Positions 6,283-61,774 of a stretch of DNA of 64,000 bases are shown here, piece by piece. This DNA is from Dictyostelium discoideum (Eukaryota), in assembly GCA_000004695.1 (NCBI GenBank), contig CM000153.2, positions 2,784,001 through 2,848,000 of the forward strand, written 5' to 3'. A program made the translations under genes and the position numbers. The stretch's first letter is position 1; each line of letters opens with the position of its first letter. Under the pieces are notes generated by a model. The model did not search any database. It saw only the letters and a program-made list of their open reading frames with translations, and had not been told where the DNA came from.

Positions 6283-7622
6283 TCATTTTAATGGTTCTGG
6301 ATTATTAAAATGTGTTTGAAATCTATTAATTAATAAATTATTTGATTTTAATATTCTTGATATAAATGAACCAAAATTTAAATTTGAATTAATTTGAGTT
6401 AAACCATCTTTTGGACCTAGTGATAGACTAATGATTGGTGGTAATAATTTATGTTTTGCAAGTTGGTTTTTATTTTTACCATTTGATAAATCTTTTATAA
6501 CTTTAGCTACTATATTCCCATGTGAAAGTGCATTGTATGTGGTTTTAAGTTCATCAAAATCTGTAATATCACCAATTGCAAATATATTATCGTATCCTTG
6601 AACTTGACAACTTTGATTAACTTTAATTTGACCAATTTCATTAATTTCATTTGAAAAATTAGTTTTATAAGATTCACTATTTAATTTAATACCAATTGTC
6701 CAAATTACAAAATCAGATTCAATTGATAACCCATTTTTAGTTTTATATGTTTTTAATGAAACTTGAAAATTTGGTGATGTTTGATTAATAAAACATTGTT
6801 TTATATCATCTGGAATTTCAATTCTATCATTTAATATAACTGAAACGTTTCTTTTTTTCATAGATTCATTAATTAAATTATTGAATTTATTATTTGTTTT
6901 GGATGATACTAATTTATTACCACTATGAACAATCGTAATTTTCTTTGCCAATTCTTTGTTTTTAATTGGATATTTATTAATAATTTCTCCAACAACTTCA
7001 CAACCTACTGAACCACCCCCAACTATTAATATACTTTTAGCTTGTTTAATTTGTTCTGATATGTCTTTATAGTAATTAAAAATTTCAGTACCTGATATTT
7101 TTTCTAATGGTGCTTTAAAAGGTGCCAATGAATTTGAACCAGTTGCAATTACTAAATAATCAAATGTTAATTCTTTACCATCTTCTAATTTTACAAGAGT
7201 TGGTGAAATTTCAATAACTGTACCATAAATAAATTTACCATTTTTCAATAGTTTATCATATGGTATATATATTTTTTTTGCCAATTCTGGTTCAACTATT
7301 GCTCTTATTGATGCAATACTATTAAAAAATGTTTGTTTTCTTTCAACAACAGTTACTTCAAAATTTGAATCTAATAATTTTGCAACTTGGCTACCTCCAA
7401 AACCACACCCAATTATTAAAACTCTTTTCTTTTCACAATCTCTTGTAATACTACTAAAATAATTAAAAATCTCTATTAATTTAATTAAAATAATATAAAA
7501 AAAAAAAAATTAATTATCTATTTTTTTTTTTTTTTTTTTTTTTTTTATTAATTAAAACAAATTAAATAATTTAAATATATTTTACTTTTTAAAGATTCTG
7601 AAATATTATAAAGGTAATTCAT
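6283..7622 (-). CDS. AIF/AMID-like (AIFM2/FSP1-type) FAD-dependent pyridine-nucleotide-disulfide oxidoreductase, paralog 1. Tentative model join(7622..7586,7472..6283); 5' end uncertain.
   Basis: Colinear with the paralog at 10340..11503 from ..EKKRVLIIGCGFGG (Rossmann GxGxxG) to the C-terminus. The homologous ORF continues above the track's TTG start (7284) to ~7472 with no in-frame ATG, so it needs an upstream exon. The only candidate is ATGAATTACCTT...TTAAAAA|GTAAAA (7622..7586) joined to acceptor TTAATAG|AG at 7474/7473, which preserves frame. It could instead be 5'-truncated. Confidence 0.55.
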
Positions 7623-8017
7623 TTTTTAATAAAAATGAATTATATAAAATAAATTTATATAAACTATTTAGGATTATGATGTGTTGGAATAAAGATTAAG
7701 ATTAAGATTGATATTTTTTTTTTTTTTTTTTTTTTTTATAAATGGCATTTAAACATTTTAACAAGCAAGAATTACGAAATTAAATTAAAAATAATTTTTT
7801 TTTTTTTTTCATTATACCAAAGGGTGTTGCCAAATCAGAATTATGAAACCAAAAAAAAAAAAAAAATCTTAAAAAATTGTAAAAAAATGCATTCCATTTT
7901 AGAAGAGAAGAATAGAATTTTCTATTTGATTTTTTTTTTCCTTTTATTGATAATGGATTATTGTTTTTAATAATTATCTTATGAAAGATTGATTCTTAAA
8001 AAAGTTTTTTTTTTTTT

Positions 8018-8150
8018 TTATTCACCTGTTAAAACAATTTAATTTTACACAAAAAAAAAAAAAACTGGGCTAACTTTTTAATTTTTTTTTTTTTTTTTTT
8101 TATTCACCTGTTAAAACAATTTAATTTTACACAAAAAAAAAAAATATTTC
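8018..8150. repeat. Direct repeat (2 x ~50 bp: tattcacctgttaaaacaatttaattttacacaaaaaaaaaaaa) separated by ~25 bp
   Basis: Near-identical copies at 8018-8062 and 8096-8150. Confidence 0.8.
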
Positions 8151-8178
8151 CTTTGGGCTTGTTCCATAAAATCAAAAG

Positions 8179-8240
8179 GACAGTTGACGAAGTTTTTCTT
8201 TGAATGTAAGGAAATGTTAGATTTGCTGTAAGGTCAACTT
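8179..8240 (-). ncRNA. Class I RNA-type small ncRNA gene (copy A, ~62 nt)
   Basis: The minus strand reads AGTTGACCTTACAGCAAATCTAACATTTCCTTACATTCAAAGAAAAACTTCGTCAACTGTCC, then TTTTG. It has the 11-nt Class I motif CCTTACAGCAA next to a 5' AGTTGAC / 3' GTCAACT terminal stem. A DUSE-like ACCCAAAA box lies ~86 nt upstream on the same strand. Confidence 0.6.
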
Positions 8241-8325
8241 ATAATGTGATTACTTTTATATTTTTCACATTTTAGTTTTAATAACAAAAAATATAAAATT
8301 GAAAACATAAAAATAAAAAATAGGA

Positions 8326-8333
8326 TTTTGGGT
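8326..8333 (-). promoter_or_regulatory. DUSE-like box (ACCCAAAA) upstream of Class I RNA copy A
   Basis: Matches the Dictyostelium upstream sequence element consensus (A/T)CCCA(C/T)AA with one mismatch; position fits the downstream small RNA gene. Confidence 0.45.
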
Positions 8334-8434
8334 TCCACTTTGTTCTCATTAAATAAAAAATTTGTTTCTTTTTTTTTTTTTTTCAATTTTTTTTTTAAAT
8401 TTTTTTTTTAAAATTTTTTCATTTTTTCCCGAAA

Positions 8435-8442
8435 ACCCATAA
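8435..8442 (+). promoter_or_regulatory. DUSE box (ACCCATAA) ~60 nt upstream of the candidate ncRNA starting ~8500
   Basis: Perfect match to the (A/T)CCCA(C/T)AA consensus. The inverted-repeat arm conserved with the 9145-9312 copy begins at 8500, 58-63 nt downstream. Confidence 0.55.
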
Positions 8443-8499
8443 AAAGTTTTTATCAACCAAAAACTCCATTTTTAATTGAAATTCTAACATATGTTTAAT

Positions 8500-8763
8500 G
8501 GGCATATCAGGACATCGAGTTTAACACCTATTCAGACTCCAGAATACAAATTAATTTGAGCGGCAACGTTCTTATCAATCTGCAATACTCATATCATCTT
8601 AGAGGAATGATTGAAAAATCATAATTCTGATGGAGTACAAAAAATGCTGAGAAGTAACAGCATTAAAATAAACATTTAGACTATAGTTGTGAGTCTTAAA
8701 TTCCAACCAGTCAGTAGTGGCTAAAAATCTACAAAACATAAACTCGATCTGATAACTGAAATG
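8500..8763 (+). ncRNA. Candidate DUSE-driven ncRNA (~260 nt, class unknown)
   Basis: Starts GGGCATATCAGGACATCGAGTTTAAC... at the expected DUSE-to-TSS distance and ends at a T6 run (tgtcttttttatttttt). The 5' segment (catcgagttt) can pair with the 3' segment (aaactcgatc), giving a terminal stem. The first ~140 nt are ~90% identical to the inverted copy at 9145-9312. Confidence 0.4.
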
Positions 8764-9144
8764 TCTTTTTTATTTTTTTTTTATTTTTTTTTTTTAATAA
8801 TGATTACAGTAATGATGTGACAACATCCCTATTTATAAAAACAAAAACAGTATTATATACAACAGATCACCTGTCCTCCCAATAAAAGAAGTTTAAAAAA
8901 AAAAAAAAAAATTATTATAACTATAAACAACATTCGATAGAATATAAAATAATAGTAAATTTGGGTATAAATAACAATAATAATAAATAATATTTACATC
9001 AAATTTAATATTTATTTATTAATTATTAATTAATGTTTATTTTAATATTTAAGCTATTAAAAAAAAAAATAAAAAAATAAAAGAAAAAAAATTATTTAAT
9101 TATTATTTTTTTTTTAAACACTGATTAATCAATGGATATGTGAA

Positions 9145-9312
9145 TAATAAAAATAAAATAAATTTGTCAAATGAGATTATGTTCGGAGCACTGAATCTGG
9201 AATACAGTAAAGTTTGCACCTAATTCCTCTGACGATAGAGGAGTGCAGATTGATAAGAATGTTGCTCAAATTAATTTGTATTCTGGAGTCTGAATAGGTG
9301 TTAAACTCGATG
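9145..9312 (-). ncRNA. Second, inverted copy of the candidate ncRNA (~170 nt; shares the 5' ~140 nt with the 8500 copy, then diverges; ends at T-runs). No DUSE upstream, so possibly a pseudo-copy.
   Basis: The reverse complement of 9228-9312 matches 8500-8583 at ~95%; similarity extends more weakly to ~9200. The 3' terminal ~55 nt recur at 63097-63160. Confidence 0.3.
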
Positions 9313-9449
9313 TCTTGATATGCCCATTTTAAGTATATTTAAAATTAATTTGTTAGTTATCTTATAATTTGATTAACTTTTTATGTGTGTTTAAAAAAAA
9401 AAAAAAAAAGAAGAGAATAAAAAAAAGTTAAATTTTGTTTAACAATCAA

Positions 9450-9457
9450 TCCCAAAA
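9450..9457 (+). promoter_or_regulatory. DUSE box (TCCCAAAA) upstream of Class I-like copy B
   Basis: Consensus match; ~72 nt upstream of AGTTGACC. Confidence 0.45.
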
Positions 9458-9527
9458 ATTATTTTTTGGTTTTTAAATTCTGAAAAAAAACAAATTTTAA
9501 TTTTATTTTAAAATGTGAAAACAATTA

Positions 9528-9579
9528 AGTTGACCTTTAAGCAACTTTCTACATTCAAAGAAATCCTTCACCAACTGTC
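9528..9579 (+). ncRNA. Class I RNA-like gene, copy B (degenerate motif CCTTTAAGCAA; strong T8 terminator)
   Basis: AGTTGACCTTTAAGCAACTTTCTACATTCAAAGAAATCCTTCACCAACTGTC + TTTTTTTT. Colinear with copy A (same internal CATTCAAAGAAA segment) but in the opposite orientation, with a weaker terminal stem. Confidence 0.45.
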
Positions 9580-9774
9580 TTTTTTTTAATTTTATATTAT
9601 TTTTTTTTTTTATTTTTTTTTTTATTAATAACTTTTCCTTTCCATCATCTAATTTTTTGATTTACTTAATGTAAATTTGTGATTCTTGAAGGAAAAAATA
9701 GGATTTTTGGTTATTTAAAAAAAAAAAAAAAAAATCTTAATTATTTTTTTGATAATTTAATAAGAAAATAAAAA

Positions 9775-9814
<40 letters not shown>

Positions 9815-9820
9815 ATTCTG

Positions 9821-9828
9821 TCCCACAA
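9821..9828 (+). promoter_or_regulatory. DUSE box (TCCCACAA, perfect) upstream of Class I copy C
   Basis: Perfect consensus; ~89 nt upstream of AGTTGACC, the same spacing as copy A. Confidence 0.5.
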
Positions 9829-9915
9829 AATTATTTTTTATATAATATTTTTTTAATAATTAATTTTTTAATTCTTTTTTTTAATGTGTAAAACATTTAA
9901 GTTAACACATAATTA

Positions 9916-9973
9916 AGTTGACCTTACAGCAAATCTTACAATTTCATCCTAAGAAAAAATACAGTCAACTGTC
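9916..9973 (+). ncRNA. Class I RNA-type small ncRNA gene (copy C, ~58 nt)
   Basis: AGTTGACCTTACAGCAAATCTTACAATTTCATCCTAAGAAAAAATACAGTCAACTGTC + TTTTTTT. Perfect CCTTACAGCAA motif, a 7-bp terminal stem (AGTTGAC/GTCAACT) and a T-run terminator. Confidence 0.65.
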
Positions 9974-10234
9974 TTTTTTTAAATTTTTTTTTGGGATAAC
10001 CATTATTACCTCTCGTTTTAAAAACCAAAAAAAAATGATTTGGTTGGATTGTTGTATCTTTTTTTTTTTTTAATGTCAAATTTGTATTTTTAAATAAAAT
10101 TAAAAAAACAAATAAAATAATCCAAGATTTTAAATTAAAAATAATAAAAATAAAAAAATTAATAAAGGTAATTTAAATTTTATATTTCATAAACTCATTA
10201 ATCCTATTTTAAAATAAAGATATAGACAATTTTC

Positions 10235-10265
<31 letters not shown>

Positions 10266-10339
10266 TTTTAATATACTTAATAAATAATTTTTATTTTTTT
10301 ATTTTTATTTTTATTTTATTTTTTTTTTTTTTTTTTTTT

Positions 10340-11503
10340 TTATTGGATTAAAGGTTTTGGATTATTTAATTGAGAAATATAACGATCAATAAATAATGAT
10401 TTTGATTTTATCATTTTTGTAGCAAAAGAACCAAGACACATAGTTGGACTGATTTGAGTTATACCATCTTGAGGACCTAATGAAAGACTAAGTATTGGAC
10501 CTGATACTTTATGTTTTGCAAGCTTATCATTACTTTTACCTTTAGATAAAGCATCGATTGCTTTTGCTGCAATTGCAGCATGATAGCCAGCATTATATGC
10601 TGTTTTAAATTCATCAAAATCTGTACAATCACCAATAGCAAATACATTATTGTATCCTTGAACTTGACAGCTTAAATTTACTTTTAATTGTCCAGACTCA
10701 TTGATTACATTTGAGAAATGTGATTGATATGATTCACTATTTGTTTTAATACCAACTGTCCAAATTATTAAATCTGCTTGAATTGGTACACCCTTTTCAG
10801 TTGTATAATTTTGTGATGATATTTGAATATTTGGTGAAGTTTGATTTAAAAGGTTAGCTTTAATTTCATCTGGCATTGTAATTCTATCATTTAATATGAC
10901 TTCAACATTTCTCTTTTTCATTGCTTTTGAAACGACATTTGTAAATTTATCATTCATTTTTGGATTCACTAATTTACTACCACTGTGAACAATTGTAATT
11001 TTCTTTACCAATTCTGAATCTTTAACTGGATATTTCTCTACGATTTCCGATACCAATTCACAAGCAACTGCACCACCACCAACTATTAATATACTTTTAG
11101 CTTGTTTAATTTGTTGTGAAAAGTTTTGGAAATAATTTAAAATCTCACTACTACTTTTCTTTTCTAATGGTGCTTTAAATGGTGCCAATGAATTTGAACC
11201 AGTTGCAATTACTAAATAATCAAATGTTAATTCTTGACCATCTTCTAATTTTGCAAGAGTTGGTGAAATTTCAATAACCGTGCCAAAAATAAATTTACCA
11301 TTTTTCAATAGCTTATCATATGGTATATAAATCTTTTTAACTAATTCTGGTTCAACAACAGCTCTAACAGATCCAACACTATGGAAAAATGTTTGTTTTC
11401 TTTCAACTACAGTTACATTAAATTTTGAATCTAATTGTTTTGCAACTTCACAACCACCATAACCACCACCAATTATTAATACTCTTTTCTTTTCTGATGT
11501 CAT
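10340..11503 (-). CDS. AIF/AMID-like (AIFM2/FSP1-type) FAD-dependent oxidoreductase, paralog 2, single exon, 387 aa
   Basis: MTSEKKRVLIIGGGYGGCE (FAD GxGxxG), a second dinucleotide motif ILIVGGGAVACE, and the C-terminal AIGDCTDF motif typical of the pyridine-nucleotide-disulfide oxidoreductase/AMID family. This is the intact tandem partner of the 6283 gene. Confidence 0.8.
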   Translation of the reverse strand: MTSEKKRVLIIGGGYGGCEVAKQLDSKFNVTVVERKQTFFHSVGSVRAVVEPELVKKIYIPYDKLLKNGKFIFGTVIEISPTLAKLEDGQELTFDYLVIATGSNSLAPFKAPLEKKSSSEILNYFQNFSQQIKQAKSILIVGGGAVACELVSEIVEKYPVKDSELVKKITIVHSGSKLVNPKMNDKFTNVVSKAMKKRNVEVILNDRITMPDEIKANLLNQTSPNIQISSQNYTTEKGVPIQADLIIWTVGIKTNSESYQSHFSNVINESGQLKVNLSCQVQGYNNVFAIGDCTDFDEFKTAYNAGYHAAIAAKAIDALSKGKSNDKLAKHKVSGPILSLSLGPQDGITQISPTMCLGSFATKMIKSKSLFIDRYISQLNNPKPLIQ

Positions 11504-15778: not shown

Positions 15779-17400
15779 CAATTGTTTCTTTGTTTTACGT
15801 TATTACCATTTGTCGTAATAATTTTTTTTTTTATTAACCAAAAATAAAAAAATAAAATAAAAAAAATATTGTGACAACTTGTTAATAATTCTCCTTACAG
15901 AAAGGTTTAGAGATATTTTAGTTTTTATTTCACATTTAAACAACAATAATAATAATAAAAAAACAGCATTTAGCACATCAACAAAAATTTTAGCATATTA
16001 TTTTTTTTAGCACAAAAATTTATTATTTTTTTTTTTTATTACTAAACAAAAAAAAAAAAAAAAAAAAAAAGGTAATTTTAAGACTAATATTAATTTAAAC
16101 TCTATTAAAATTTTTTTTCTATTCTTTTTTTCTTTTTTTTTTTCTTTTTCTTATTATATTAATTTAATTTGATTGAATTTTTTTTTTTTTTTTTTTTTTT
16201 TTTTTCCTTCAGACAAAATTGTCCATTTTATTTAAAAATTGGAGCATGTAGACATGGTGATCGATGTTCAAGATTACATAATAAACCAGTATTAAGCCAA
16301 ACTATATTATTACCAAATTTATATCAAAGTCCAATCTCAAAAAAAGCAATTGAAGCAGCAGGAGGTCAAGCACCAAACCTTTCAGATGCAGAATTACAAC
16401 AACATTTTGATGAATTTTATGAAGATATTTATGAAGGTCTTGCAAAGTATGGCCAAGTAGATCTTTTAAATGTATGTGCAAATTTAGGTGATCATTTAGT
16501 TGGTAATGTTTATGTTAAATATCAAAAAGAAGATGATGCAAATGAATCAATTAAGGGTTTAAAGGGTAGATTTTATGATGGTAAGTTTATAAATTTTTAT
16601 TTTATTTTATTAAAAAAAAAAAAAAAAAAAAAAAACCTACCACCTCATACATTTATATTAATATTTTTTTTATTTTTATTTAAATATTTTAAAGGTAGAC
16701 CAATTATTTCTGAATTTTCACCAGTAACAGATTTTACAGAAGCAAGATGCAGGCAGTACGATATAGGAACATGCAATCGTGGTGGATTTTGTAATTTTAT
16801 GCATTTACATAATCCATCAAAGTCATTGTACTATAAATTATTTGGCGATAGAAAGAGTAGAAGCCCAAGTCCAAAGAGAGATTACAGAGATAGAGATAGG
16901 GATTATGGTAGAAGAGGTTACGATAGAGACTATAGAGACAGAGACAGAGATAGAGACAGAGACTATGGAAGAAGAGGTGGTGGTGGCTATGATAGAGACT
17001 ACAGAGATAGAGATAGAGATTATGGTGGTGGCGGCGGTAGATATGACAGAGACTACAGAGATAGAGACAGAGATAGAGATGGCTATGGTAGATCACGTGA
17101 TTATGATCGTGACCGAGACCGTCGTCCATATGACGAGTTTAGAGGAAGTAGAGGCTCAAAATCACCAGAATACTCAAGAAATAGTGGGGGTGACATTCCA
17201 CCCTCTGATCATCACTTTAGTAGATCTCTACTTTTAACAGACTATGCCTATCCTCCACCAACCGGAGGTATTGTAAATGGTAGTCCATCCTCAAATCAAC
17301 CACCTCTTCACCTTCCTCCACCAACCAATGAATATTCACACATTTTACCAATTACAACTACACAATCACCACTCTCTACTGGCTCAAATGGTGGCTCACT

Positions 17401-57023: not shown

Positions 57024-57095
57024 TCCTTGTTGGTCTAGTGGTGAGGATTTTCGCCTGTCACGCGAAAGGCCCGGGTTCAATTCCCGGACAGGGAG
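57024..57095 (+). tRNA. tRNA-Asp (anticodon GUC)
   Basis: TCCTTGTTGGTCTAGTGGTGAGGATTTTCGCCTGTCACGCGAAAGGCCCGGGTTCAATTCCCGGACAGGGAG: cloverleaf with anticodon loop CTGTCAC, T-loop GGTTCAATTCC, 7-bp acceptor stem, discriminator G. Confidence 0.85.
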
Positions 57096-57105
57096 CTTTT
57101 TGAAA

Positions 57106-60100
57106 ACTCACTCGAAATCCGAAGTTCCGGTTTCTAACTTCATTCAAATAAATTTTTAAAAAAATGAATTTTTTCGATAAACTTAAAGGTGAACTCAACT
57201 TAGGCGAAGAAGAGTTAAATAAAAAAACTATTCAAATAAGGTTATTCTACCCACATACCTTGGAATTAAATAGTAATTCAACAAAATTAATAGATAATTT
57301 CATAGTTAATGGTACTCTTAACATTGTCAGAAGACAAAAGGGTATAACAGTATTCGGTAGAATACTAAAAGAAAAATTCACATTATTACACGAGTGTTAC
57401 AGCACTTTCAAGTATGAAGATTTCCCACTGCAAAAATTCATACTTTACACCCCAGGATATCACTATGTCCACTTTTACACATTTATCTGAAAGAAACACC
57501 TTCATAATCAACTCAAAATCTCTGTTTAAAAAATATAATTCAATCAACCATCAAATAATAGCAGGCGACTTCAATAACAACCACGATTGCAACAGCTTCT
57601 TCGGTACTGAATTACGTAAAATAATAGACCAAGACATGCTACTAGATACTGGTATTGAAGAAAACACTCCAACATTTCCAAGATCAATGAAGAGACTAGA
57701 TAGAATCTACTGTCATCCAACACTACTAAACCAAAATTCAAAACTGGTAGTCCACAACACAGTATTTAACAAATCAGATCACTTTCCCATCACAATCACA
57801 ATACAAACCAACAGAGAAACAACAACAACAACAACAACCAAACTAGAAAGACTCCCTTGGACATTATGTAAAGAAATTCTCAACAACAAACATATACATG
57901 ATGGGTTATCAGAATTAATCAGTAAGAACAAAGATAAGATCAAATCAGTGGAGGAATGGACGAAATTTAAAAATAATGTCATCAGAGATTATTTAAAAAA
58001 AGAACAAAACAAAATAAAGAAAGAAAAGAACAAAAGAAAATACGTAATCCACAAATTACTTGGAAATTGTGATATCATTCCAAAGATGAGAAAAGAACTC
58101 AATGAAGAAATAAGTAGAATATTAGAAGAAGAAAGAAAGGTAAAAGCATGGGATATCAAATTAAAACTCCACCTGCATCAAGAAACACCAAGCAAATACC
58201 TCACAAGTATCCTTAAATCCAGAGCCAAAGATAAATCAATATTCCAAATAAAAGATAAAGATAATAAGACCATATCAGATAAAGAGAACATAGCAAAAAG
58301 ATTTGTTGAATTCTATCAAGATCAATATGAAGAGAAAGAAGATAACGAAGAAACCCACAAGAAGTTATTAGAAAAATGGGAAGTAGACGTTGATTTAATC
58401 AAGAAACTCGAGATAGACAGACCGATAAGAATACATGAAGTGACCAAAGCAATCAAAACTTCAAGTATCCACAAATCTCCAGGTTTAGACGGTATCAATG
58501 CACTATTCTACAAGTACCACATCAACTCAATAGCAAGAATATTGACTATAGCTTTCAACGACCTCCTCACAAATAAGAAAGAAATCCCCACAAAATTCAA
58601 AGAAGGAGTAATAACAACAATATTCAAAAAAGGAGATGAACTAAACATTTCAAATAGAAGACCAATCACCCTTCTCAATACAGATTACAAAATTTTAAGC
58701 AAAATTCTCAACAGTAGATTATTAGATATCACCAGTAAAATTATCAACAAATTTCAAAACGGCTTTGTTCCAAACAGGTTCATCCAAGACAATATTCAGA
58801 TCATGAAGGAAGTAATAGAAATAAGTAACAAAAGAAAGAACAATACACTCATTACCTTTTACGATTTTAACAAAGCATTCGATTCAATCAGCCACAAGAG
58901 TATCACAAGAACATTAGAGCATATTGGTATCCCCCCAAAATTCACAGCGATCCTACTAAACCTACTCAAAGATACTAAAAACAAAATAAAGATCAACGAC
59001 TTTTTAGTCAATGGAATAACAATCAGAAGAGGAACAAAACAAGGAGACCCAATATCACCAACAATCTTTGCTCTAGTTTTAGAACCACTTCTAATAGATA
59101 TCATCAATGATAATACAATCAAAGGCTTCACTCTACCAAATTCCAAATCATTAAAACTCACTGCATTTGCTGACGACATAGCAACATTTACAAACTCCAC
59201 TGAAGAACTAATGAAAATTAATACTAAAATCCAAAAGTACTGCTCAGCAACATCATCATCGTTAAACAAAGAGAAAACAGTAATGATAGCAATAGGAGAT
59301 ATACCACACGATCTACCATTCCAAGAGAGTACAGTCCCAGAAAGATATCTTGGCCTCAATTTCACCAAAACAGGTTTAAATTCAAAATACAACACTTTAA
59401 TCCAAGAAATGAAAAACAATCTAATCAAATGGAAATCACAAGCAATAACGATGAAGGCAAAGATGACAATTCTCAAAACATACGTTCTATCCAAATTAAC
59501 ATACCATCAATACATGGATAATCTAAATGAAGAACAAATTGAGGAAATCAATAACATGACCAGATGGTTCTTATTCTCCTCAGTTAAGAATACATATACA
59601 AAAGAGAGAAAATACAAAACTATGATGAAAATAGACAGAGCATATGCAGATTGGAAAGAAGGAGGCATAAAATTATGGGATATAGAACTAAGACATATAG
59701 CATTCAAAATCTGGTACATGAACAGGCTACTCCATAACAACTACAACAACAACAACAATACCTTACAAGAATGGTACATGGAGCAATTAAGTAGAAAAAA
59801 AGCCCACACTTCAACCCTCAACGATATGTGCAGACACTGGGGTGTATTCAGAGTCAAATTTTACCAAAACCATCCAAAGATAAATGAACTTCCAGACTGT
59901 ATAAGAAACGACAATGACGAACCACTAAAACTAAAAGAAATTTACGAACTCATGATCAAAGACAGACACCCAACACCAAGAAGAACAGAATGGCAGAAGT
60001 TATGGGCGGTGAGATACAACACAGCAATACCCAAAGTATTCATAAACATCAACAGCATTTCTCACCAAAAAGGTAGAAACACCCTCTTCAGATTCTTCTC

Positions 60101-60601
60101 AAGATCACTTCCAGGTATCAACCACGAAAGAGACACCAGATGCAAGATCTGTGGCCACCTATTCAGAGACCCTTATTCTCACCTCTTCACTCTATGCCAA
60201 GATATCCTAGATATTGAAAAAACCATCATATCAACAGTTAACAAATTATCATTCATCAAAATCCACAGATGGTCAATGGATACCTTAGACATATCAAAAT
60301 ACAACAGAACTGAGAGAATCTTCCCCAATCTCATAGGAATAATAGCACACCAATTATGGAAGATAATCTGTCACAAATTGTTCAACACTGATGAAAGCAA
60401 ACCAGAGCCAAAATTCGAGCAAAAGGTCATAGAAACAGAATTACTAAATCTCATCGAAACTGAAAAATTCATCACACTAAAGAAAATCAAACACGACGAA
60501 GCAATACTAAAAAACACCAATCAAGATCTTCACAAATACAAATTCAACAAAGCCTGGCAAACCCCAGTAGTTCCGAACCCTCTTCCAATTTAAGTAGTAG
60601 T

Positions 60602-61640: not shown

Positions 61641-61702
61641 TTAAATTTTTTGGATGCATTTAGAAAATCGGAACTTCGGATTTGTAGGGATTTTTCAAAA
61701 AG

Positions 61703-61774
61703 CTCCCTGTCCGGGAATTGAACCCGGGCCTTTCGCGTGACAGGCGAAAATCCTCACCACTAGACCAACAAGGA
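61703..61774 (-). tRNA. tRNA-Asp (GUC), second copy in inverted orientation
   Basis: The reverse complement is identical to the 57024-57095 gene. ~30 bp of 5' flank and ~55 bp of 3' flank are also duplicated, and the 5' flank+stem fragment (attcaaaaatatccaataatccttgttggt) occurs a third time at 61850-61880. Confidence 0.85.

Follow-up and report, generated by a model that had tools for sequence, protein, structure and literature searches.

A known Class I RNA gene cluster between aifA and aifB of Dictyostelium discoideum, with genes in different states and an additional candidate RNA unit

Three Class I RNA genes in the aifA-aifB spacer

The subject of this analysis is a stretch of Dictyostelium discoideum DNA of 64,000 nucleotides (nt) (contig CM000153.2, positions 2,784,001 to 2,848,000; hereafter the window), in which three short units lie in the spacer between two genes for homologs of apoptosis-inducing factor (AIF), aifA and aifB. 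An initial annotation of this DNA had described the units as Dictyostelium Class I RNA genes with promoters containing the Dictyostelium upstream sequence element (DUSE), located between tandem AIF-like paralogs. When re-checked in the window, the units were found at the positions given there, and they proved to be exact published members of this class: copy A is DdR-56, copy B is DdR-57 and copy C is DdR-32, each matching base for base the respective entry of the set curated by Kjellin et al. 2021 (ddi_curated.fa; PMC7919456). The finding is correct and already known, the three genes having been named, mapped and quantified in the literature. Overall, we regard it as very likely that the locus represents a known Class I cluster on chromosome 4 at approximately 2.792-2.794 Mb, located in the aifA-aifB spacer, that its DdR genes are in different states, that it comprises an extra candidate unit, termed X1, and that the origin of this island is unrelated to the older duplication of the aif genes.

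Table S3 of Kjellin 2021 (PMC7919456) places the three genes on DDB0232431, which is chromosome 4, at 2792179-2792238 (minus strand, DdR-56), 2793527-2793577 (plus strand, DdR-57) and 2793915-2793971 (plus strand, DdR-32). The offset between these and the window coordinates is constant at approximately 2,783,999. For the mature RNAs, the coordinates of the literature were used:

8181-8238, minus strand: DdR-56 (copy A), a 58-nt Class I RNA gene with exact identity, an RF01414 match and a terminal stem
9529-9577, plus strand: DdR-57 (copy B), a 49-nt degenerate, unexpressed Class I copy with exact identity
9917-9971, plus strand: DdR-32 (copy C), a 55-nt highly expressed Class I RNA gene with exact identity and an RF01414 match

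A check against the published non-coding RNA (ncRNA) set of Kjellin et al. returned all three units, and the Rfam search that had been proposed with the initial annotation returned two of them, A and C, above the gathering score of the family RF01414 (41.5). The scores were 55.5 bits for DdR-56 and 51.2 bits for DdR-32, with E values of 1e-7 to 1e-8. DdR-57 gave no match in Rfam even at E<=10 in a permissive scan of 4 kb. With the covariance model of Kjellin et al., the score of DdR-57 is 25.6, above their floor of 15 (Table S3, PMC7919456), and all three units exceed the threshold of 32 of their classifier and are included in the curated list (PMC7919456).

With regard to the 11-nt motif of the class, the initial annotation was right in calling it exact in A and C and altered at two positions in B. 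The motif, CCUUACAGCAA, is located directly 3' of the 5' half of the stem and is exact in DdR-56 and DdR-32, and DdR-57 carries CCTTTAAGCAA (RNA form CCUUUAAGCAA) with two mismatches to it. The terminal stem that had been claimed for all units was confirmed by folding for A and C, where a 6-bp GUUGAC/GUCAAC stem constitutes the lowest-energy fold (z-score -2.08 for DdR-32), but not for B, in which the stem is damaged: the 3' side reads CACCAAC instead of GTCAAC, and the lowest-energy fold of this RNA is devoid of the terminal stem. Likewise, the claim that each unit ends in a T-run holds for DdR-57 and DdR-32, both of which end at strong T-runs, but the one after DdR-56 (TCCTTTTGATTTT) is weak.

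Promoters, expression and state of the three genes

The promoter elements of the three genes were located by pattern search and are also listed in Table S3:

8326-8333, minus strand: DUSE variant ACCCAAAA of DdR-56
8266-8272, minus strand: TGTG box AAATGTG of DdR-56 (in Table S3, TGTG-box distance 28 and DUSE-to-TGTG distance 60)
9450-9457, plus strand: DUSE variant TCCCAAAA of DdR-57
9511-9517, plus strand: TGTG box AAATGTG of DdR-57
9821-9828, plus strand: canonical DUSE TCCCACAA of DdR-32
9882-9888, plus strand: TGTG box variant TAATGTG of DdR-32

The DUSE consensus (A/T)CCCA(C/T)AA, which had been assigned to all three units, is found in front of copy C only (TCCCACAA). The elements of copies A (ACCCAAAA) and B (TCCCAAAA) have a CCCAAAA core and fit only the looser published consensus [AT]CCCA[AT]AA. 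In D. discoideum Class I genes, a TGTG box (AAATGTG) occurs approximately 60 nt 3' of the DUSE and is followed at variable distance by the RNA start (PMC7919456). Accordingly, all three genes have a DUSE core and, at 60 nt, a WAATGTG sequence (inter_dist of 60 for 3/3 in Table S3), and the RNA starts 10-28 nt past this box. The long spacing of 72-89 nt between DUSE and gene, which had already been noted in the initial annotation, is accounted for by the TGTG box: the DUSE-to-gene distances amount to 70-88 nt because the box intervenes 60 nt after the DUSE.

These elements also bear on the possibility that the matches to motif, stem and DUSE arose by chance in AT-rich intergenic DNA and that there are no RNA genes at the locus. 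Single loose patterns would agree with it, as the 11-mer with up to two mismatches occurs seven times in the window versus 4.7 expected occurrences, which is not significant alone, and the 8-nt DUSE consensus by itself is only mildly enriched (nine found, 4.3 expected). The exact 11-mer CCTTACAGCAA, however, is present twice, at 8223-8233 (minus strand) and 9922-9932 (plus strand), versus 0.00 expected, GTTGACCTT is present three times versus 0.16 expected, with one occurrence opening each unit, and the composite promoter CCCAHAA-N49-53-WAATGTG is present three times versus 0.03 expected, at exactly the positions of the three units. Together with the Rfam E values and the fact that the sequences are published, two of them with read support, these counts exclude a chance origin of the kind that the initial annotation had named as a possible refutation, and we give this explanation practically no credence. 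Two other matches in the window were rejected: the near-motif CCTTACAGAAA at 15893 is accompanied by neither a stem nor a DUSE, and the DUSE match at 58353 falls inside the open reading frame (ORF) of a retrotransposon.

Transcription of Class I genes depends on the DUSE (PMC7919456), and RNA polymerase III (Pol III) is suspected because T-runs lie downstream. Each gene is composed of a DUSE, a TGTG box 60 nt further on, an RNA start 10-28 nt after the box and an end at the T-run, to which Pol III-type termination would fit. As described in published work, the mature RNAs of 49-58 nt present the CCUUACAGCAA motif in single-stranded form on a short terminal stem. Class I RNAs are mostly cytoplasmic and developmentally regulated, and the knockout of a single gene perturbs early development (Kjellin 2021, PMC7919456, citing Aspegren 2004 and Avesson 2011); the RNAs are reported to affect early multicellular development (PMC7919456). 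One Class I RNA, which is not among the three RNAs of this locus, directly binds the RNA recognition motif (RRM) protein Rnp1A (CIBP) (Avesson 2011 as cited in PMC7919456).

The published read counts differ strongly between the three genes. In six libraries, 51,891-87,902 reads were assigned to DdR-32, 223-377 to DdR-56 and 0 to DdR-57 in all six, and DdR-56 and DdR-32 are listed with a read coverage of 1, DdR-57 with one of 0 (Kjellin 2021, PMC7919456). With regard to the small-RNA reads that the initial annotation had asked for, DdR-32 is therefore abundant and DdR-56 is weakly represented, approximately 200-fold below DdR-32 in AX4, but DdR-57 has no reads at all.

In order to compare the locus between relatives, we used assemblies of D. 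discoideum (L004 and L005), D. cf. discoideum (L007 and L008), D. dimigraforme (L001) and D. citrinum (L002). The DUSE of DdR-56 in AX4 (window 8326-8333) reads ACCCAAAA, and a 16-nt deletion is located just upstream of it. At the same DUSE, L004 (at ~12517) and L005 (at ~12643) have a canonical TCCCATAA or TCCCACAA, and the RNA is identical or near-identical. Judged from these sequences, the change in the DUSE may account for the low output of DdR-56 in AX4. DdR-57 is read as a decaying copy because of its two motif mismatches, its broken stem, which is not formed in the predicted fold, and the lack of an Rfam match. At the position of L007 that matches DdR-57, there is an intact gene with a colinear promoter, TCCCACAA, AAATGTG and perfect motif and stem (42 bits). 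The segment bearing DdR-57 is missing from L004, L005 and L008. Class I decay was also seen in L008, where the ortholog of DdR-32 at 7470-7525 (minus strand) has lost 12 nt internally, among them the 3' half of the 11-nt motif.

One could, as the heading of the initial annotation implies, regard all three units as equally functional Class I genes of a working three-gene cluster, since each of them combines a DUSE with a TGTG box at the proper spacing of 60 nt, exceeds the Kjellin threshold of 32 and is part of the curated list. For DdR-57, this is contradicted by zero reads in six libraries and no match in Rfam, by damage to the motif at two normally conserved positions and to the 3' side of a stem that does not form, and by the absence of its segment from L004 and L005 of D. 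discoideum as well as from L008 of D. cf. discoideum. We therefore consider equal function of the three units highly unlikely. According to the preferred reading of a cluster with genes in different states, DdR-32 would be a strong gene, DdR-56 an intact gene with a weakened DUSE and low output in AX4, and DdR-57 a decaying, silent copy. The locus illustrates the turnover of Class I genes in that a strong gene, a gene with an AX4-specific single DUSE change and a silent, decaying copy are found in one spacer, and wild assemblies contain differing subsets of them.

Candidate RNA gene X1 and the architecture of the island

The largest RNA-like feature of the interval, X1, had been missed in the initial annotation together with its partial copy X2. 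The respective features are:

8500-8765, plus strand: X1, a 266-nt candidate for a structured ncRNA, not assigned to any family, based on fold, conservation, DUSE and T-run
8435-8442, plus strand: canonical DUSE ACCCATAA of X1, starting 65 nt before the first G of X1
9223-9325, minus strand: X2, a truncated inverted copy of X covering profile positions 1-108 only (nhmmer E 1e-25)
9381-9388, minus strand: degenerate DUSE ACACATAA upstream of X2, which aligns with the DUSE of X1
7973-10290, no strand: the ncRNA island, a sequence of the D. discoideum complex in place of which D. citrinum and D. dimigraforme have approximately 180-200 bp (blast break points)

X1 is a block of higher GC content than its surroundings, with a long T-run directly 3' of it. 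The predicted fold has an energy of -61 kcal/mol, compared to -43.6 kcal/mol for shuffled sequences (z -4.22), and an approximately 19-bp stem pairs its 5' and 3' ends; the X copy of L007 folds with a z of -4.96. By profile search, full-length X was found once each in the window, L004, L005 and L007 and twice in L008, i.e. in six copies in five assemblies. Conservation of X ends sharply at both predicted ends, a DUSE at -63 to -65 precedes five of the six full-length copies, and a T-run follows all six. There is no canonical DUSE upstream of X2. When the six copies are aligned, none of them breaks the 19-bp terminal stem, in which four compatible changes affect one side only. A compensatory change is seen in two inner pairs, and a GNRA loop is changed from GCAA to GAAA. 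On the basis of the fold and this alignment, the structure of X is plausible but unproven.

Other identities for X were considered. X1 contains no ORF of at least 50 aa. A coding X was rejected, as a 22-aa ORF at 8491-8559 begins upstream of the conserved block and its frame is lost in X2 and in the L007 copy, and as a coding frame on the minus strand, suggested by a 3-nt indel between X1 and X2, has nearby stops and yields no ORF. X as a Class I RNA was rejected as well: at 257-266 nt, it is outside the class (42-65 nt, up to approximately 141 nt for atypical members), and it has neither the 11-nt motif nor a match to RF01414. Among 4227 Rfam families, including the models for signal recognition particle (SRP) RNA, RNase P/MRP, small nuclear RNAs (snRNAs) and small nucleolar RNAs (snoRNAs), X had no match, and the universal mid-size ncRNAs (SRP RNA, RNase P/MRP, U snRNAs, U3, 7SK, vault and Y) gave no family model that fits X. 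A cmscan of X alone at E<=10 returned only two chance-level matches on the wrong strand. The same Rfam library did recover the RNase P RNA in L007.

The sequence of X is not contained in the supplements of Kjellin 2021, Liao 2018 (microRNAs (miRNAs)), the 2024 Nucleic Acids Research (NAR) paper on Amoebozoa miRNAs or the 2022 paper on box C/D snoRNAs. X was thus found neither in Rfam nor in the literature searched; Larsson 2008 and dictyBase were outside this search and may well list it. A 28-mer from the 5' end of X gave 0 matches in a metagenome scan. By eye, X has only a weak complementary match (7/11) to the 11-nt motif of Class I.

X1 and X2 are part of an inverted repeat between DdR-56 and DdR-57, the arms of which (8474-8561 and 9264-9351) show 88% complementarity over 88 nt and are separated by 702 nt; its left arm corresponds to the 5' part of X1. 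Since both arms are full-length X copies in L008, since long hairpins are known sources of small RNAs in D. discoideum and since X matches no known family, X1 and X2 could be arms of an inverted repeat that is transcribed as a small-RNA hairpin, or simply neutral, recently duplicated DNA of higher GC content. On the other hand, L004, L005 and L007 have only one full-length X, to which there is no partner arm, each copy folds alone (z of approximately -4 to -5) with its own 5' and 3' ends paired, conservation ends exactly at the start predicted from the DUSE and at the T-run, and five of six copies have a DUSE of their own at -63 to -65. A hairpin or neutral origin is, in our view, unlikely.

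Based on the same evidence, X may possibly be an undescribed, lineage-restricted candidate ncRNA gene of approximately 266 nt of the D. discoideum complex, driven by a DUSE, ended by a T-run and located back-to-back with Class I genes in a palindromic island of fast turnover, although we put this forward as a tentative proposal with more doubt than confidence. If truly unreported, X would be one more mid-size ncRNA of D. discoideum, linked to the Class I genes, and it might be co-regulated or functionally linked with the Class I RNAs.

X1 is located back-to-back with DdR-56 and X2 back-to-back with DdR-57, so that the two-gene unit occurs twice in mirror orientation. Because of this mirror arrangement, the pair of Class I gene and X appears to have been duplicated in inverted orientation. 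A local inverted duplication of A and B, as put forward in the initial annotation, is plausible on account of the X1/X2 pairing, but the argument originally given for it, the colinear CATTCAAAGAAA segment common to A and B, is weak, as genes at other sites of the genome, DdR-23A/B/C, DdR-30 and DdR-50, contain this segment as well. DdR-56 and DdR-23 are nearly identical, and A and B share 75% identity over 68 nt. X2 carries the CTGCACTCCTC variant of the L007 copy and is for this reason not taken as a recent copy of X1 but as the decayed partner that belongs to the side of DdR-57.

The content of the island differs between the assemblies. In L004 and L005, it comprises DdR-32, a single X and DdR-56; in L008, DdR-32 with the 12-nt internal deletion, two full-length X copies and DdR-56; and in L007, a DdR-57-like gene, a single X and, on the opposite side and strand, a DdR-32-like gene. 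Since the duplication, the island would have acquired some copies and lost others, depending on the strain, which is common in multi-copy families of small RNA genes, and it agrees with the rapid turnover that has been reported for Class I genes in general.

Three further observations concern the DNA of the island. A perfect 58-nt direct repeat (8005-8062 and 8087-8144, 82-bp spacing; T15-ATTCACCTGTTAAAACAATTTAATTTTACAC-A12) is located just 3' of DdR-56, near the left edge of the island. The approximately 430 bp between X1 and X2 (8785-9222) contain GC-richer patches at 8800-8900 and 9130-9222, with no recognisable feature and no counterpart in the compared assemblies. In place of the X2/DdR-57 segment, L004 (11880-12056) and L005 (11877-12176) have an (AAT)n microsatellite, the length of which differs between the two.

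The flanking aif genes, the origin of the island and comparison with known systems

The flanks of the island are indeed two tandem AIF-like paralogs:

6283-7622, minus strand: aifA (DDB_G0285003, Apoptosis-inducing factor homolog A), the left flank, 408 aa, one intron, Pfam Pyr_redox_2
10340-11503, minus strand: aifB (DDB_G0285005, Apoptosis-inducing factor homolog B), the right flank, 387 aa, Pfam Pyr_redox_2, exact match to EAL64966.1 / Q54NS8

The ORF of aifA is 332/333 identical to P0004. The two proteins share approximately 68% identity, and D. citrinum, D. dimigraforme and D. cf. discoideum possess a separate ortholog of each. The tandem aif pair is also present in D. dimigraforme and D. 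citrinum, with spacers of approximately 600 bp and 390 bp, respectively, in which we found no RF01414 match, no 11-mer and no copy of X. The blast break points, at approximately 7973 and 10290, delimit an island that is replaced by 180-200 bp in these species; this interval is almost exactly the one marked in the initial annotation.

The initial annotation had suggested that the aif pair and the RNA cluster may have arisen in one and the same duplication event. The location of the cluster, which fills the spacer between the paralogs, and the 75% likeness of A and B over 68 nt are what one would expect in this case. This suggestion did not hold: D. citrinum and D. dimigraforme keep both aif genes without a Class I gene, and the orientations differ, as the aif copies are direct repeats and A/B as well as X1/X2 are inverted. 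Furthermore, DdR-56 resembles DdR-23A/B/C, which are located at a distance of 1.1 Mb, more than it resembles DdR-57. The aif duplication is judged older than the island because of the separate orthologs, the protein identity of only approximately 68% and the island-free aif pairs of the two species. The creation of the cluster by the tandem aif duplication is thus extremely improbable, and, as far as these sequence comparisons go, the shared event is refuted and the origin of the island is unrelated to the older tandem duplication. The comparison disposes of a tempting story that ties the RNA cluster to the duplication of the aif genes. In the D. citrinum spacer, a lone perfect DUSE, ACCCACAA, is located at L002 9721-9728, either by chance or as a remnant. 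A decayed Class I remnant beside it was considered and rejected, as the alignment revealed no convincing homology and there is no X copy downstream.

Several points weigh against our reading of the locus as a whole. D. citrinum and D. dimigraforme could have lost the island, as opposed to its having been gained later in the other lineage, and the order of the rearrangements is beyond what five assemblies resolve, the DdR-32-like gene of L007 being on the opposite side and strand. The read counts rest on the table of one paper, the T-run after DdR-56 is weak, and Pol III may transcribe Class I genes, an assignment drawn from the T-runs for which PMC7919456 itself uses the words 'may be'. As to the candidate X, its copy in L007 has no DUSE, and its covariation is thin (2/69 pairs in six closely related copies), with some of the inner helices broken in some copies.

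Outside the island, two identical tRNA-Asp(GUC) genes in inverted orientation, 57024-57096 (plus strand) and 61702-61774 (minus strand), flank an ORF at 57414-60593 (plus strand). This ORF of 1059 aa has endonuclease and reverse-transcriptase domains and represents a non-LTR (long terminal repeat) retrotransposon beside tRNA genes, which we take to be as expected for the tRNA-targeted TRE elements of Dictyostelium. In D. cf. discoideum, the gene for the nuclear RNase P RNA (RF00009, 60.5 bits) is located at L007 21195-21503 (plus strand), approximately 9 kb beyond aifA.

Among known systems, the three units belong to the Dictyostelium Class I RNAs (RF01414; DdR-21 to DdR-67; Aspegren 2004, Avesson 2011, Kjellin 2021) by exact sequence identity. 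They have in common with this family the length range, the GUUGAC/GUCAAC terminal stem, the CCUUACAGCAA motif, the promoter of DUSE and TGTG box, the intergenic site and the clustering. DdR-56 and DdR-32 do not differ from the family, whereas DdR-57 is off consensus at two positions of the motif and two of the stem and is unexpressed. X1, for its part, resembles the DUSE-driven mid-size ncRNAs of D. discoideum, such as the spliceosomal snRNAs and the SRP RNA, in its DUSE approximately 60 nt upstream and its raised GC content, the two marks by which ncRNA genes have been found in this genome; unlike these, X matches no Rfam family.

Other clusters of Class I genes on chromosome 4 are DdR-21/49/50/51/22/52 at 0.957-0.962 Mb and DdR-23A-C/24A-B/26 at 1.663-1.676 Mb. 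Like these, the aifA-aifB spacer brings together, over a few kb and on mixed strands, several Class I genes with near-duplicates among them, and DdR-56 is only a few bases apart from DdR-23A of the latter cluster. In the present cluster, two of the Class I genes are each located back-to-back with a copy of the non-Class-I candidate X.

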